Shown in pieces: positions 5,919 to 24,506 of a DNA stretch of 64,000 nt; the stretch's first letter is position 1, and every line of letters begins with the position of its first letter. The DNA lies in IMG/VR virus record IMGVR_UViG_3300010391_000021, positions 6,119-70,118 of that record. One strand, given 5' to 3'. The translations under genes were made by a program, and so were the position numbers. The notes beneath the pieces are model-generated. The model was not told the origin of the DNA. It saw nothing but the letters and a program-made list of their open reading frames with translations, and searched no databases. The DNA is from a virus.

Positions 5919-6574
5919 TGACGCCAAAACGTTTAATCGCGTGTATCTCGTGCCATTCGTATGTTTATCCTAAACACGATCAAGGCGGGGCGCATCACAA
6001 CGGCCCAAACGAATCCCGGTCAAAGGCAATTAGAGAAACTTGGTTTCGAACGTGGAAACTGAAGTATAGCGATCAGATCGATTTGAAGTTTTTTCTCGGT
6101 CGGTCGGCAAGCGTTCCTCGCGAAGATGAAGTTTTTTTAGATTGCGCGGACGATTACTACAGTCTTCCCCGCAAAGTTCAAAAAATGTTTGAATGGGCGG
6201 CAGAGCGCGACTACGATCAAGTAGCTAAGATTGATGATGATGTTTGGCTGTGGGTAGATCGCCTACTAAGCAATTTAGACAACACGGACTATAAAGGATT
6301 CGTTCTTGAATCCGCAGATGGGAAATACACAAGCGGTACGGCGTATTGGTTGAGCAACAAAGCGATGAAGATTATCGCGGCGGCTCCTTGGAACCCTACC
6401 GATTGGGCGGAGGATAAATGGGTCGGAAAAGTTCTTGCAGAACACGGCATCTTTCCCGTTCACGATGAGCGGTTTCAATGCTGCCATTGTAAGCAATGCA
6501 AAATCCGGTATCCCGAATCGGACAGGATTTCAACTCACACCGTTGATCCAAAAGAAATGTATGTCCGCGTATGA
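5918..6574 (+). CDS. GT31-like (galactosyltransferase-type) glycosyltransferase
   Basis: AIRETW, DDYYSLPRK, KIDDD, SGTAYWLS and EDKWVG motifs. Confidence 0.75.
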   Translation: MTPKRLIACISCHSYVYPKHDQGGAHHNGPNESRSKAIRETWFRTWKLKYSDQIDLKFFLGRSASVPREDEVFLDCADDYYSLPRKVQKMFEWAAERDYDQVAKIDDDVWLWVDRLLSNLDNTDYKGFVLESADGKYTSGTAYWLSNKAMKIIAAAPWNPTDWAEDKWVGKVLAEHGIFPVHDERFQCCHCKQCKIRYPESDRISTHTVDPKEMYVRV

Positions 6575-16755: not shown

Positions 16756-17625
16756 ATGCCTGAAGAAATTGTTCCAGCACCAGAAGTTGCGGTAGTTCCT
16801 GAACCGCCTAAAGAATTTCGATACGAATACCAGCCAAAGGATGAAAGCGGAAATCCGTTAGGCAATAAACAGGTCGTGATCGCGACTACGCCAGAAGAGG
16901 CGGTAGAAAAAATCGCGCAAATGCACCAAGAAGCGATCAAGTTTATTCGTAAACAGAGTCGCGACCTCCGTCTTGGAGTGGTGTTCAACGATGAAATCCC
17001 ACAAGACGCCCCTCGTGTCAAGGCAGGGCAGTACGAGATTGAACCCATTCCTTTGACCGCAGAAGAAAGATTAGAAGTAACTCAGAACATCAACGATCCA
17101 GAGAATTTTGAGAAAGCTGCGCGGCTGATTGTTCGAAGTCAGATTGGTGATCCAGACGCCGTTCGCGCAGTAGTTGGAGATCAGAAACGCAGAATCGCGG
17201 CGATTGACGCCCGCGAACAAGCAGAAGCTTTCGTCCGGTCAACTCCTGATTATTTTGTATGCCCGCAGAATTTTGAAACTATCGCCAACTGGATGATTAA
17301 AAATGATCTTGAGCCGGTTAAGGCAAACTTCAAACTTGCTTTCGAGGGTCTCAAAGAGTATTTGGTTTCGCGTCCGGTTGTGGAGCCTGTTGTTCCTGCT
17401 CCAGTTCCAACACCTGTTGCAGCGCCGGTTGCAGAAACGCCTGCTGCGGTTGCTTCTGAATCGAAACGTCCCGTATCATCGGGACTGACCCGCGAGAATT
17501 CTTCGGACAGCGGCCCCGTATCCAAAAAAGGATACACCCCCGCCGAGATCGATAAGATGTCGGCAGATGAATACAAGCAGAAGGTTTTAGTGCCGGAATT
17601 CAGAGCGAGTCGGCAGAAGGCGTAA
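16756..17625 (+). CDS. Capsid scaffolding protein
   Basis: Acidic helical protein with a Pro/Ala linker and C-terminal IDKMSADEYK, upstream of the MCP; GGAG RBS. Confidence 0.7.
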   Translation: MPEEIVPAPEVAVVPEPPKEFRYEYQPKDESGNPLGNKQVVIATTPEEAVEKIAQMHQEAIKFIRKQSRDLRLGVVFNDEIPQDAPRVKAGQYEIEPIPLTAEERLEVTQNINDPENFEKAARLIVRSQIGDPDAVRAVVGDQKRRIAAIDAREQAEAFVRSTPDYFVCPQNFETIANWMIKNDLEPVKANFKLAFEGLKEYLVSRPVVEPVVPAPVPTPVAAPVAETPAAVASESKRPVSSGLTRENSSDSGPVSKKGYTPAEIDKMSADEYKQKVLVPEFRASRQKA

Positions 17626-18029
17626 TGATTCGGCGGTACGAATCTCGCGACTTCGAAGATGTTGACTTCTTGCAACGTGATTTCTATCTTCGCCCCGCAA
17701 CTCAAGAAGAATTGCGGGGCAAGTTAGAAAACCCCTCGTGGGTAGCGGACGAAGATGGTGTTATTGGCTGCTTGATAACTTGTCCAGATGCGGACAAAAC
17801 TCTGATCTGGAGTGTAATCGTTGCCCGCCCCTGTCGCGGGAAAGGAATCGGCTCGGCGTTATTAGAAGCGGCAGAATCGTTCTATTATGGAACTAAATTG
17901 ACGCTCTATGTAGAACCAACCAATCCTGCCAAGAGTCTGTATGAGAAACGCGGATATCGAGCCGCGCAACTAATAAAAGGATTTTACGGCAAAGGGTATG
18001 ACGCCGTAGAGATGTACAAAATTTGCTAA
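17625..18029 (+). CDS. GNAT (RimI-like) acetyltransferase
   Basis: RGKGIGSALL and NPAKSLYEKRGY motifs. Confidence 0.88.
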   Translation: MIRRYESRDFEDVDFLQRDFYLRPATQEELRGKLENPSWVADEDGVIGCLITCPDADKTLIWSVIVARPCRGKGIGSALLEAAESFYYGTKLTLYVEPTNPAKSLYEKRGYRAAQLIKGFYGKGYDAVEMYKIC

Positions 18030-18176: not shown

Positions 18177-20739
18177 ATGGCTTTTTCACCGGCTAAATGG
18201 TAAGCTGGCCGGATTAAATCTTGCCAAATCGGTGAACATCTGGTATAATTAATACTAGACAATACCGAGGAAACCTTATGAACAATACAAACAAATGGTC
18301 GTATCTGGCCGGAGTATTCGATGGAGAGGGGTCTGTAGGAATTGCGATTCATAAACTCAATTCTTCAACCCATCTTGTTATTTCTCTTTCAAGCACCAAT
18401 ATCGAACTGATGGAATGGTGCATAAAACATTTTGGGGGTGTCTACTATACGCAAAGTCGGGGAACTCACCGAATTGAATATAAATGGATGCCAAAAGGAA
18501 AGAAAAACCGAGAAGTTTTTTTTCTCGGAATTCTTCCATATCTCATCATTAAGAGAAAACAAGTTTTATTGGCCTTGGAATATGATAGGCTAGGTTCTCA
18601 CAATCCCGAAGCACGAACAAAAATGCGAGAACAGATGCTCTCTTTCAACAAGGGTTCTGTAGAGACTAATACGCAAGACGCGGCTCCCGCCGTGATGATC
18701 GAGTCCGAACTCATTGGGGACAATGAGAGTGCACCGGATGTGAATCCGGGTTTTGATTGGGCCGCTTTGCAGCGACTCAGACAAATTTAGCCTAAACACC
18801 GTTAGGCAATAACCAGTCAAATCTGCCTCAGTCTACTGTGCGCTATTATGACAAAAAGTTCCGCGAGAACTTGAAGGCACAGACCCCCTTCGTCGCTTGC
18901 TCCGAACGTTTGGACCTACCGATGAAGAGTGGCAACCAGTATAACATGTATTTGTACGTTCCTCTGGCCGCGAATACTTCGCAGACCACGGAAGGTACTG
19001 TAGGTAGTTCCGTTTCGGTTAGCGTTCTGAATACTTCGGCCACGATTGGCGAATACGCAGACTACGCCAACTTCTCTTCGCTGTCCCTCGCAACTGCGAT
19101 TGACAACACCGTAGAGAACGTTGCCCGCGAAATGGCGTATCGTCTGGGTGAATCTCTGTCCGCTCTCGTCCGCGCAACTGCTGACGGCGCGAATACGGTT
19201 GACTCAAGCGTTCGCACTTTGCTATCCGCGACAAGCACCACGAGTTTCACAACTCTGTCGCTGACCTACATCCGTAACGCCGTCCAGAGTTTGGCCGGTC
19301 GTTCGGTTCGCCCGTTCGATGAGGCTTCCAAAGCGTATGCTGGCGTTATCCATTTCTAAAAGGGTGGATATAAAACTTGACTAAATCGGTGGACATCTAT
19401 ATAATATAGACAATACCGAGGTAAGGTCCAATGTTTCAAATAGACAAGACAAAATGCTCGTATCTGGGCGGCTTGGTTGATGGTGAGGGCAATATTTGCA
19501 TCTGGCGTACCGAATCCCGTGCGCATGATTATAAAGTCTCTGGAAAGACCTATGGGTCCTTCAATTTGAGGCTGCATATTGCAAACACCAGCTTAACACT
19601 CATGAAATGGTTAGTCTCGAATTTTGGCGGTGTTTATCACTGCAAAAGAGAAGCCACAGATAAGCATGCAACTGCTTATGAATGGCGTCCAAAAGGCGAG
19701 GGAAACACAAAACGTACTCTTCTGGCGATTTTGCCTTATCTCGTGATTAAACGAGAGCAAGCAATTCTGGCACTCAAATATATTGATCTGCCACAACAAG
19801 CGCCCAAAGAACGTGAACTAATCTACCAACGCATGAGACAGCTAAACCAAAAAGGACCCAAAACCGTAACGACTAATACGTCAAGCCCTGATGAAAGTCA
19901 GGTGAAGATAGAGTCTGATCTCATAGGCGACTATGAGTGTGACCCTGCGGTGACGCAGGACTCCTAAACAAAAATACCTTTCGCCCTTGGCGATGTGCTG
20001 GCAGACAACAGCAACGACAGCCCTATCGACATTTTGAAGCGCACCCCGCAAGGTTATGCTCGTTTGGATGAAATTATCTCAACCGACCTAACCGAAGTCA
20101 TCAACTTCCCGACTTCCGGCGTAAGTTTCTTCCAGTCGAACCTCGTAACCACGACTGCCAATTATAATGACGGAACGCACGGCGCTGTTACTGGCCTGAC
20201 CGCGCTTCGGACTTATATCTTCGGCAGAGATGGCATCTACAGCATCAACCTTGGTGCTCAGGGTGACACGGGCTTTGGCGACGGCGAATGGCGCAATATT
20301 CGCTGCAATATCGTTCAGAACGCTGAACCGAGCGTCGCTGATCCTAGCGGGCTGATCCCAGGTTGGACTTCGTATCGTGTACATTTTACGACCTCGCTTG
20401 GGCCAGACACCACAATTCGTATGAGACAGCTAGATGCCGCCAGCGCAATAAGTTAATTGTTTTCAGCCAATTACAACTGAATACATTTTACTATTACGCA
20501 CGGAAACCTAATGCGAATTTAAAACTTGACCTGATTGACTTGAAACCTGAAATGGCAACAAGGCGGAACCCGAAAGGGACCGTGAGAGACTAAGCGGTCG
20601 AGCGCCGAAAGGTGATGCGATAGTCCGAACATACGGGAACAAAACCGTATGAGGTTGGCAGAAATGACCAATCTCAACAGCGTAAGTTGTTGATAACAGG
20701 GCGATTAGGGAAATCGACGCAGCCAGCGCAATTTCGTAA
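18177..20739 (+). CDS. Major capsid protein (N4-gp56-like), spliced: join(18177..18194,18805..19353,19977..20420,20704..20739), 348 aa
   Basis: The exons join in frame: MAFSPA|GNNQSNLPQ...YAGVIH|PFALGDVL...DTTIR|IREIDAASAIS; IGEYADY and IHP motifs; follows the scaffold. Confidence 0.85.
18221..18249 (+). promoter_or_regulatory. sigma70-type promoter inside the intron 1 core
   Basis: TTGCCA-17nt-TATAAT, then GAGG and the ATG at 18278. Confidence 0.75.
18278..18790 (+). CDS. Single-motif LAGLIDADG homing endonuclease (intron 1)
   Basis: WSYLAGVFDGEGSV, FGG and ILPYLIIKRKQ motifs. Confidence 0.92.
   Translation: MNNTNKWSYLAGVFDGEGSVGIAIHKLNSSTHLVISLSSTNIELMEWCIKHFGGVYYTQSRGTHRIEYKWMPKGKKNREVFFLGILPYLIIKRKQVLLALEYDRLGSHNPEARTKMREQMLSFNKGSVETNTQDAAPAVMIESELIGDNESAPDVNPGFDWAALQRLRQI
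19377..19405 (+). promoter_or_regulatory. sigma70-type promoter inside the intron 2 core
   Basis: TTGACT-17nt-TATAAT, then GAGG/AAGG and the ATG at 19431. Confidence 0.78.
19431..19967 (+). CDS. Single-motif LAGLIDADG homing endonuclease (intron 2)
   Basis: SYLGGLVDGEGNI, NFGG and ILPYLVIKREQA motifs. Confidence 0.92.
   Translation: MFQIDKTKCSYLGGLVDGEGNICIWRTESRAHDYKVSGKTYGSFNLRLHIANTSLTLMKWLVSNFGGVYHCKREATDKHATAYEWRPKGEGNTKRTLLAILPYLVIKREQAILALKYIDLPQQAPKERELIYQRMRQLNQKGPKTVTTNTSSPDESQVKIESDLIGDYECDPAVTQDS
20421..20703 (+). mobile_element. Group I intron 3 in the MCP (283 nt, no endonuclease), with a copy of the last exon in its P1 loop
   Basis: P1 aattcgU/Gcgaatt (20513-20519); P10 cctaat/attagg; P3 cttgacc/ggtcgag; P7 GACTA/TAGTC; P9 catacgg/ccgtatg; terminal G20703. 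Confidence 0.88.
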
Positions 20740-20747
20740 GATTTTGC

Positions 20748-20776
20748 TTGACACTGCGTTAGTTCTTTGATACACT
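20748..20776 (+). promoter_or_regulatory. sigma70-type promoter
   Basis: TTGACA-17nt-TACACT. Confidence 0.7.
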
Positions 20777-20856
20777 ATTGTTGATGCATCAAATTGGAAA
20801 AGAGGCGGGTGCCTTCATCATCCGCCTCCGATCCGATTCCCTATGAAGGAGGGAAC

Positions 20857-20973
20857 ATGATAGGTGAAAAATATTTTAGATATGAAGTTTTGATGTTTGC
20901 TTGGAAAGAAAAACAACAAAGATATTATTTATGTGTTTGTGAATGCGGCGCGTTGCGATGCGCGGCGGTTTGA
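20857..20973 (+). pseudogene. 38-codon N-terminal remnant of an HNH/AP2-type endonuclease
   Basis: MIGEKYFRYEVL...YYLCVCECG resembles the G..FGRL.V...C.CDCG start of these genes; strong GGAGG RBS. Confidence 0.55.
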
Positions 20974-21230
20974 TATACTAATAATTGTATAAATTGCGAG
21001 GCAAAATGGTAAACGATACTACAACTGGCGAGAACATCTCAATCAACCCGAACTACGTTCCACAACAGCAGCATGTTTGTCCCAACTGCGGATTCTGCCC
21101 ATGTTGCGGACGAAGGGCTGTTCAGCCCTATCCAGTATTTCAACCGCCGGGTTACTTCCTTTTCCTCCGGAACTCAAAACATTAATTAATTGCGCGGCAG
21201 GACGACACTAACCTTATCTAAGGAAACAAC

Positions 21231-22573: not shown

Positions 22574-23161
22574 ATGACTAAACCCCGTTGGGAGTCTTAT
22601 GCTGATGAAATTATAGGCAAAGACACGCCCGAGATGGAAGCCGCAATCGCTGAATATGCGAAAAATAGATACGAGGGAAAAAGTTCTTCGCAAAACGAAG
22701 AAGAACTTGCCCGATGGAAAGAAGGAAATTCTGAAATAGCTAAAGAATACCAATGGGTAAAGCCGGAAGAATACGCTGACGAAGCGGCGCGGGTTGGTCG
22801 CGTAATGAGTCACGAAGAGTTTATTAGAATTTTGAGAAATAAACTCCACCTTACGTGCTTTTATCGAGAGATGAATCATCCCCAAAAGATTGCATTATGG
22901 GCAACGAAAAGAGAAGGATTGGTCCCAGAAAGCGTTGGTTGGGTAAAGCGCGGACTCACCACCGAACTTTCTATCATGCGTTTTGACGATCACGGGGTTC
23001 CTGTGGATGAGAAGTTTAGAGGATGGCGCAGCGTTTTGATGAATTTAGTTATGAAAGGTTTTCTAAAAGAACATGATGTTCGTAAAGTATTCGGACGAGC
23101 TAAAGGGTCTTGTAGTGAAAAATACAATTCTTTTATGCAGCAATTTAGGACGGTAGTATGA
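22574..23161 (+). CDS. Hypothetical protein
   Basis: GGGGG RBS before the ATG; 195 aa. Confidence 0.6.
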   Translation: MTKPRWESYADEIIGKDTPEMEAAIAEYAKNRYEGKSSSQNEEELARWKEGNSEIAKEYQWVKPEEYADEAARVGRVMSHEEFIRILRNKLHLTCFYREMNHPQKIALWATKREGLVPESVGWVKRGLTTELSIMRFDDHGVPVDEKFRGWRSVLMNLVMKGFLKEHDVRKVFGRAKGSCSEKYNSFMQQFRTVV

Positions 23162-23616
23162 GACCCGGACGGCCTATAAAAGATGGATATAAAATTTGTT
23201 ACAAGTGTAATCAAAATCTTCCTGTATCAGAATACTATAAAGCCTCAAGACGAAAAGAAGGTTTAGAGGATTGGTGTAAAAAGTGCACCAAAGATCGCTC
23301 AAAAAGTTACTATAAAAAAAACAAAAGATGTCTAAAGAACTCTCAGCGTTTGCGTATATACGGAATCACAGAATCAGAATATAAGAAGATTTTTGTATTA
23401 CAAGGAGAATGTTGTGCCATTTGCTGGACAACGAACCCTAATAGTAAAGACTGGCACATAGATCACGATCATATAACCAATAAAGTTAGAGGTATTCTTT
23501 GCAGCGATTGTAACCGTCTATTGGGCGGAGCACGAGACAATCCAAACATTCTTAAACTCGGTATCAAATATTTAATGAAACCAGGAATCGTTGACATAGA
23601 GAGAGTTGTTGCATAA
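23158..23616 (+). CDS. Endonuclease VII-like HNH endonuclease
   Basis: CAIC...IDHDHITNKVRGILCSDCN. Confidence 0.9.
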   Translation: MRPGRPIKDGYKICYKCNQNLPVSEYYKASRRKEGLEDWCKKCTKDRSKSYYKKNKRCLKNSQRLRIYGITESEYKKIFVLQGECCAICWTTNPNSKDWHIDHDHITNKVRGILCSDCNRLLGGARDNPNILKLGIKYLMKPGIVDIERVVA

Positions 23617-23936: not shown

Positions 23937-24506
23937 TTGATCGTTTATAAGATAACGAATCTATTTTATGGGACTTCATATATCGGAAAAACTGTTCACT
24001 CTTTAGAAAGAAGATGGATTCAACACCTAAGCGACGCTATTGCCGGAAGTGAATTTTACCTACATCGGGCAATAAGAAAATATGGGCCGGATTCCTTCTC
24101 TAAGGAAATTATTTGCGAATGTGATAGTCAAGAACAGATGTCTGAAATTGAAAAATTTTGTATTATAGCCTTTGATACGAAAGCTCCTAGTGGCTACAAC
24201 ATGACAGATGGAGGAGATGGTCAATCTGGTCGGAGACATTCTCAAAAATCAAGAGATAAAATAGGCGAGGCTCAACGCGGAAGAAAACTACCAGAAGAGT
24301 GGAGAAATAAAATTAGTAAAGCATTAACTGGAATTGTTCGATCTTCCAAATTTTGTAAAGATTTAAGTAATCGATGGAAAGGTAAAACTAAGACGGAAGA
24401 ACAAAGAAAAAAGATAAGCGAAACTTTAAAAGGACGAAAGCTGACAGAAGAACACAGAAAAAACATTGCAGCCGCCCAATTAGGAAAAAAGAGACCAAGA
24501 AAATGA
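23937..24506 (+). CDS. GIY-YIG homing endonuclease with NUMOD3 repeats
   Basis: IVYKITN...YIGKT, GYNMTDGG and H/TEE.R.KIS repeats. Confidence 0.9.
   Translation: MIVYKITNLFYGTSYIGKTVHSLERRWIQHLSDAIAGSEFYLHRAIRKYGPDSFSKEIICECDSQEQMSEIEKFCIIAFDTKAPSGYNMTDGGDGQSGRRHSQKSRDKIGEAQRGRKLPEEWRNKISKALTGIVRSSKFCKDLSNRWKGKTKTEEQRKKISETLKGRKLTEEHRKNIAAAQLGKKRPRK

Follow-up and report, generated by a model that had tools for sequence, protein, structure and literature searches.

Group I introns in protein-coding genes are assumed to be tolerated only because splicing occurs. In Cluster J mycobacteriophages, self-splicing group I introns reportedly interrupt the major capsid gene, and the locus described here likewise has group I introns within a major capsid gene. 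It lies in a stretch of 64,000 nt (hereafter the window) that is part of a 70-kb virus record in IMG/VR (IMGVR_UViG_3300010391_000021, positions 6,119 to 70,118), and our subject is intron 3 of that gene, whose P1 loop carries a second, in-frame copy of the capsid C-terminus. Among the closest described systems are the mORF gene hybrids of fungal mitochondria, known from atp6 of Allomyces macrogynus and from atp6, atp9, cox2 and nad3 of Glomus; according to the accessible text of that report, endonuclease elements inserted a foreign C-terminus in frame and the native one was displaced downstream (PMC3630166). In collaborative homing, an intron without an open reading frame (ORF) is paired with a free-standing endonuclease, as in cyanophage S-PM2 psbA with F-CphI, which has an endonuclease VII motif, or T4 mobE with nrdB (PMC3984707; PMC6083498). 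Phage group I introns with an in-frame stop codon just past the 5′ splice site have also been described (PMC3984707).

The window shares features with each of these. As in the accessible account of the mORF hybrids, a second and probably foreign C-terminus is encoded in frame ahead of a displaced native one, the arrangement is linked to recombination driven by endonucleases, and of the two copies the inserted one has diverged further (PMC3630166). Unlike them, the window has no endonuclease ORF between the two copies, only ribozyme sequence; its insert, of only 74 nt, sits in the P1 loop of a group I intron in a phage capsid gene, and the native ending is recoverable by splicing. As in collaborative homing, an ORF-less intron near a gene end is accompanied by a free-standing endonuclease VII-type gene directly downstream, which is full-length in the related loci L219 and L006 and a remnant in the window, whereas the accessible parts of the two reports do not describe a duplicated exon for those systems (PMC3984707; PMC6083498). 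As in introns with an early in-frame stop, the upstream frame enters the intron and stops ahead of the catalytic core (PMC3984707), but in the window the read-through consists of 11 codons that reproduce the missing exon, giving a complete rather than a truncated protein. The window case combines known kinds of element, namely a group I intron, a collaborative homing context and an mORF-like capture of a C-terminus. We found no literature report of an intron-borne copy of a downstream exon in a phage, in a search whose scope excluded subscription journals and supplements.

The explanation we favour, with a probability of about 0.5, is that intron 3 is a splicing-competent, ORF-less group I intron whose P1 loop would have captured the 3′ end of an intron-less capsid allele from another lineage. 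The features on which the argument turns are these:

18177-20739, + strand: major capsid (head) protein gene with four exons and three group I introns, delimited from ORFs, sequence and tblastn with the Tunturi_3 head protein.
19977-20420, + strand: capsid exon 3, which aligns to Tunturi_3 residues 190-332; its 5′ boundary is approximate.
20421-20703, + strand: group I intron 3, recognised by family alignment and covariation; it spans 283 nt and lacks an endonuclease ORF.
20421-20456, + strand: tail A, the in-loop copy of the capsid tail, MRQLDAASAIS and a stop codon, read in the frame of exon 3.
20424-20497, + strand: 74-nt block missing from the related intron at locus L218, comprising codons 2-11, the stop codon and about 41 nt of spacer; one clean gap in a global pairwise alignment.
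20457-20506, + strand: spacer resembling a capsid-gene 3′ untranslated region (3′UTR), which folds with tail A into a hairpin extending P1 (z-score -2.95).
20507-20519, + strand: internal guide, read from the sequence; the P10 strand CCUAAU (20507-20512) followed by the 3′ strand of P1, GCGAAUU (20513-20519).
20525-20626, + strand: ribozyme core with P3 (20525-20531/20596-20602), P4-P6, P7 (20587-20592/20621-20626) and P8; alignment and covariation give P3-P6 and P8.
20703, + strand: terminal (omega) G, 5 nt past the conserved TAACA of the intron family.
20704-20739, + strand: exon 4, or tail B, IREIDAASAIS and a stop codon; the capsid family's consensus ending, identical to the Tunturi_3 C-terminus and to the endings of 47 of 121 relatives.

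Exon 3 ends in SLGPDTTIR at 20420, a boundary fixed by the P1 pairing and by the junction in L218. Unspliced RNA ends in TTIR-MRQLDAASAIS and a stop codon, and spliced RNA in TTIR-IREIDAASAIS and a stop codon; because the intron-less Tunturi_3 major head protein ends in DTTIRIREIDAASAIS and a stop codon, splicing would restore the canonical capsid ending exactly. The claim of an earlier sequence-only reading that spliced and unspliced RNA both encode a full-length capsid protein is thus upheld. The tails agree at 24 of 36 nt and at 8 of 11 residues, four of the seven changed sense codons being synonymous, and in a six-frame translation of the window DAASAIS is found at tails A and B only. As read from the sequence, splicing of intron 3 is optional, in that unspliced RNA is predicted to end with a near-natural tail. 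The description of the intron as “fail-safe” therefore suits intron 3; it does not extend to introns 1 and 2, where the upstream frame reaches in-frame stops (as MAFSPAKW and as VIHF, each followed by a stop codon).

Intron 3 is by its sequence a normal member of a large family of phage group I introns, with its ribozyme core intact. P1 pairs 20414-20420 (AAUUCGU) with 20513-20519 (GCGAAUU), with a U.G pair at the splice site; it is present in minimum free energy (MFE) folds, and RNAfold extends it by 2 pairs. P10 pairs 20704-20709 (AUUAGG) with 20507-20512 (CCUAAU). The window keeps every conserved block of a 40-sequence alignment of the intron family, from which RNAalifold predicts P3, P4, P5, P6, P8 and P9.0; all of these form in the window, and compensatory changes support 30 of the 32 pairs predicted for the family. 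The assignment of P7 was made by eye, on the basis of the conserved AGACUA/UAGUC blocks, and that of P9 was likewise made by eye. The spacing of the omega G from TAACA is equal in L218 and L180, both of which have unambiguous exon junctions. Sequence, alignment and covariation bear out what had first been put forward from the sequence alone: the positions given, the two reading frames, the P1 and P10 pairings, the terminal G and a ribozyme that is intact. Compensatory changes in P3 and in the P1 guide distinguish the window from L218, and the guide co-varies with the exon. The only ORF of at least 30 amino acids (aa) that touches intron 3 is a 76-aa out-of-frame TTG ORF overlapping the exon.

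The family can be followed well beyond this gene. The core of intron 3 is 76% identical to that of an intron in the ribonucleotide reductase gene of Roseobacter phage CRP-118, and motif scans of IMG/VR returned 16 stretches and then at least 119; an AGACTAA block lies just upstream in 83 of the 122 core-motif matches checked, marking these as introns. In a tree of 49 distinct cores that match three motif anchors (introns lacking the anchors fall outside this count, and L083, L219 and L221 were left out as duplicates), the terminal branch of intron 3 is 0.022, against a median of 0.18. Rfam gave no match to intron 3 (20421-20703) at the gathering threshold, nor even at E<=10, and no match anywhere in the window at the gathering threshold; introns 1 and 2 have sub-threshold group I matches of 25 and 20 bits (gathering score 50). 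The same compact family splits the ribonucleotide reductase genes of marine phages (L002, which is CRP-118, and L084-L099), and in these introns the last exon base and the first two intron bases make up a TAA stop codon.

Folding predictions suggest that intron 3 RNA probably still splices to the consensus tail, with P1 forming around a self-folding loop of 92 nt. Because the ribozyme shows no sign of decay, tail B is the consensus and the loop copies hold residues absent from 64 distinct natural tails, splicing is expected to stay the main route, and the unspliced product would be a viable, near-natural variant.

The content of the loop is best seen against L218, which has the same sequence as L219 and L221. 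A search pattern in which the family's 3′ end is joined to the 11-codon tail led to three IMG/VR loci and one identical metagenome locus, and in L218 the intron occupies exactly the junction of intron 3 in the window. The two introns have 88% core identity and are sisters in the 49-core tree, with a value of 99 in the Shimodaira-Hasegawa-like approximate likelihood ratio test (SH-aLRT). The P1 loop of L218 is short, and its upstream frame stops after M-S-W. The 74-nt block that L218 lacks starts directly after the first three bases of the intron, ATG, and its right edge can be placed anywhere in 20497-20509. Within the spacer there is an exact 13-nt match to the 3′UTR of L003-L005, which is collinear (offset 28 versus 25) and was reached by 2 of 500 shuffles. 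Given the 74-nt block and the collinear 3′UTR match, the P1 loop appears to hold the end of an intron-less capsid gene, 3′UTR included. The P10 guide CCUAAU (20507-20512), also present in the L218 loop, resembles natural tail ends, in which TCC TAA is followed by T; this likeness could be microhomology for the join, or a coincidence.

Both endings occur among natural capsid proteins. The endings of 121 related proteins are IREIDAASAIS in 47, QRQIDAASAIS in 34, MRQIDAASAIS in 24 and others in 16, with MRQLDAASAIS in none. The endings at 81 other capsid loci are of IRE, MRQ or QRQ type, and no intron core is found within 400 nt past the stop codon at any of the 81. Pairs of natural tails differ by a median of 9 of 36 nt. 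By these comparisons the two tails are standing alleles of the capsid family, tail A of MRQ type and tail B of IRE type, and the codon differences between them would therefore be inherited from separate lineages; the proposal that these differences record selection on both copies does not hold. In-situ duplication followed by drift was also rejected, as tail A is a standing MRQ allele type and the spacers past the two stop codons are unrelated; under such a duplication, moreover, the I-to-M and E-to-Q changes would have had to arrive at a natural allele by coincidence. Tails of IRE type, like tail B, are found in the closest capsid relatives, namely L003-L006 (91-92% aa identity) and a relative from runs X2/X4 described below. 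The L at position 4 of tail A is found in none of 64 distinct natural tails, and in the corresponding loop copy of locus L220 the T at position 3 is likewise found in none of the 64 and the L at position 1 is rare. The downstream-exon tails of the window, L218 and L220 are all the exact consensus. This combination of unseen residues in the loop copies with consensus tails in the exons hints that the loop copy is under weaker constraint.

L220 has a more distant intron of the family at the same junction (nearest core L138, 84%). Its P1 loop opens with an in-frame copy of its own, TTIR-LRTIDAASAIS and a stop codon, followed by 15 nt and the guide, and its exon 2 encodes IREIDAASAIS and a stop codon. 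RNAfold forms P1 around a hairpin made of the tail copy in both the window and L220. It had been suggested that an in-frame loop copy should recur in homologous introns, and this is so for L220 and not for L218. The copy is thus present in two of the three distinct introns at this junction; in the 12 distinct introns at three neighbouring junctions (P|D, 4 nt upstream and 6 nt downstream; L233 and L239 classified from the match table only) it is present in none. In the relatives of intron 3, the upstream frame stops within 0-4 codons of the intron start.

Tail A and the L220 loop copy share 25 of 36 nt, which is below the natural-tail median of 27 of 36 and argues that the loop copies have no special kinship. 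Approximately unbiased (AU) tests, chosen after the tree was seen, did not reject a single clade, whether of the introns that carry the copy (p 0.20) or of the three at this site taken together (p 0.40). One origin with loss and two independent captures are equally compatible with these data. A wider search of IMG/VR for composites, leaving out the window's own record, gave L220 only with a reverse-complement pattern and then none; a metagenome scan gave one locus, on the same contig as L219, and a scan of genome contigs gave none. Most of the 29 loci returned by a looser pattern are intron-less; in a few an intron lies at P|D or 4 nt upstream, and the copy is present in none. In L220 (4086-4964, - strand) the capsid ORF of the program-made list finishes with the unspliced LRTIDAASAIS, and database proteins from such loci may carry the loop-encoded tail. 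This is also a warning for annotation, as gene callers will adopt the unspliced ending.

The surroundings of intron 3 point to recombination. Runs X2 and X4 come from another study, and the nearest relative of the window, found in them, was compared through contigs. The tract in question and the nuclease genes associated with it are as follows:

20309-20958, + strand: tract in which the window differs from the X2/X4 relative, with flanks about 99% (left) and 98% (right) identical.
20857-20973, + strand: remnant of a free-standing endonuclease VII-type gene, 34 homologous codons and then a stop codon, with 28 of 34 identical to the start of the L006 gene.
L006 3602-4321, L219 7495-8265 and L180 10078-10845: endonuclease VII-type genes, intact and full-length.

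The X2/X4 relative has 2 differences from the window over 19980-20308 and is then about 20% different over 20309-20417. It lacks introns 2 and 3, and its coding sequence continues directly into a tail of IRE type; where the window has 541 nt (20418-20958) it has 238, and at 20959 it rejoins the window with 98% identity. Tail B itself sits inside the diverged tract. A protein search for an X2-like relative gave a best match of 92%. At the intron 2 junction (19330-19980), the X2/X4 relative differs only synonymously in the flanking His and Pro codons, which could be a very short co-conversion tract or a change conferring nuclease resistance.

An endonuclease VII-type gene (239-256 aa) lies directly after the capsid gene in L006, L180 and L219, with Pfam Endonuclease_7 matches of E 1e-12 to 1e-15 (E 7.9e-16 for the 239-aa protein of L006), and an HNH-type gene (phrog_374, E 2.8e-46) occupies that position in L220. 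Directly after the capsid gene of the window there is no intact free-standing endonuclease gene, only the 34-codon remnant, and its homology to the nuclease genes ends at 20958, the right edge of the recombinant tract. As the right edge of the X2/X4 divergence coincides with the end of the nuclease homology, the intron appears to be a composite inside a converted tract that has an illegitimate junction at its boundary, in surroundings shaped by homing nucleases. Two more nuclease genes are found close by, encoding an endonuclease VII protein (23158-23616; Pfam E 8.7e-22) and a GIY-YIG/NUMOD3 protein (23937-24506).

Under the capture explanation, the composite could have been left behind when a double-strand break was repaired between an intron-plus and an intron-minus allele; the free-standing endonuclease found downstream in relatives would probably have made the break. 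A nuclease would cut near the junction or the stop codon, a strand bearing the end of the intron-less allele would escape trimming, and this strand would then be joined to, or prime synthesis at, the first bases of the intron. A heterologous end could come to be joined at the 5′ end of the intron because the homologous exon sequence 3′ of the site amounts to only 36 bp and the alleles have no homology past the stop codon. A join at the very start of the intron would automatically give a product in frame; it would also explain why the junctions are 0-4 nt from the intron start in the window and L220, and why the 3′UTR carried along differs, being about 41 nt in the window and none in L220. The loop copy then looks like a tolerated by-product, with no positive sign of maintenance or regulation seen. 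Several points weigh against this explanation. The junction mechanism is one that we infer, and the source allele of tail A was not found: the best natural tail, L066, matches at 29 of 36 nt, and a donor search by sliding identity over exon 3 gave no relative above about 75-85% at the nucleotide level. Intact copies in two of three introns at this site against none of 12 at neighbouring junctions form a recurrence that could equally reflect selection. Since the AU tests do not reject single clades, the copy could also be ancestral, its frame preserved while the cores diverged by about 20%; that history would speak for selection.

The strongest competitor, to which we give somewhat less credence, is that selection maintains the spare ending, whatever its origin, either for making capsid production independent of this splicing event or for yielding two isoforms, as a recurrent adaptive feature near capsid ends. 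Intact in-frame cases in two introns that share their insertion site and are only about 80% alike would fit, as would the folding of both loops with P1 preserved, the identity of DAASAIS and its stop codon in the two loop copies, which differ by 4 synonymous codons, and the failure of the AU tests to reject a single origin. Two fresh captures of already selected alleles predict the same pattern, however, and the loop copies hold residues unseen among natural tails. The sister intron in L218 is without a copy, composites are rare (the IMG/VR pattern scans gave only L220 besides the window), and introns 1 and 2 must still splice. The broader proposition that introns near the ends of phage capsid genes recurrently acquire an in-frame spare exon copy and then keep it by selection is more tentative still. 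If it were true, it would amount to a general strategy by which an intron does no harm where splicing fails, or by which two isoforms of the capsid tail are obtained, and the window, L218 and L220 would show the states before and after.

We consider it unlikely that the gene simply ends at 20456 and that the ribozyme and tail B are an unspliced relic in the 3′UTR, like the displaced C-terminus of an mORF hybrid. The unspliced frame is complete, Rfam finds nothing, and the 92-nt P1 loop is far above the family's usual length of about 7-25 nt, an estimate from the alignment and a crude script that found P1 in 50 of 100 introns and made several wrong long-loop calls (for example L123), and so is a rough guide. 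Against this reading, we see no sign of decay: every conserved block and helix is retained, the intron has a very short terminal branch, P1 and P10 match the exons perfectly, the MFE fold forms P1, and tail B is the exact consensus. Still less credible, to the point of being very improbable, is an assembly chimera of an intron-less MRQ-type strain with an intron-bearing IRE-type strain, even though the tails are of different allele types and the comparison rests on contigs, not raw reads. A 52-kb Logan contig from run X1, made with another assembler, covers 19900-21100 and shows 2 differences; since X1 probably is the source sample, this amounts to another assembly and not to independent data. 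The two tails have no common repeat longer than 11 nt, which is not enough for a graph jump; such a jump would in any case yield a hybrid tail and not the observed layout, and L220 has the same architecture independently.

The gene that hosts intron 3 was assigned by similarity. Its exon 2 matches phrog_1357 (major head protein, E 1.4e-15), and the encoded protein is 73-92% identical to related proteins, some of which the Joint Genome Institute (JGI) names “N4-gp56 family major capsid protein”. Its placement among N4 gp56-type major capsid proteins accords with its similarity to named members, including the Tunturi_3 “major head protein”; a Pfam search of the window's capsid protein gave no match. 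LAGLIDADG-like ORFs are present in introns 1 and 2, with Pfam scores of 20-21 bits that fall slightly below the cut-off. A GNAT acetyltransferase gene (17625-18029) lies upstream of the capsid gene, as it does in Tunturi_3. The capsid family is a hot spot for introns, with interruptions at about residues 22-24, 52-55, 89-91 and 187-188 and four further intron junctions within the last 20 codons, and a single capsid gene can hold several introns of one ribozyme family. This pattern is seen in L007-L082, L089, L116, L123, L156, L180, L224, L232 and others.

The coding sequence of the window makes the splicing of one intron dispensable, and both an insert-free close relative, L218, and an independent-looking second case, L220, are known. 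The locus therefore allows a direct test of what incomplete splicing costs a highly expressed late gene. It also indicates that C-terminus capture, known from the endonuclease elements of fungal mitochondria, can occur inside a ribozyme without destroying it.

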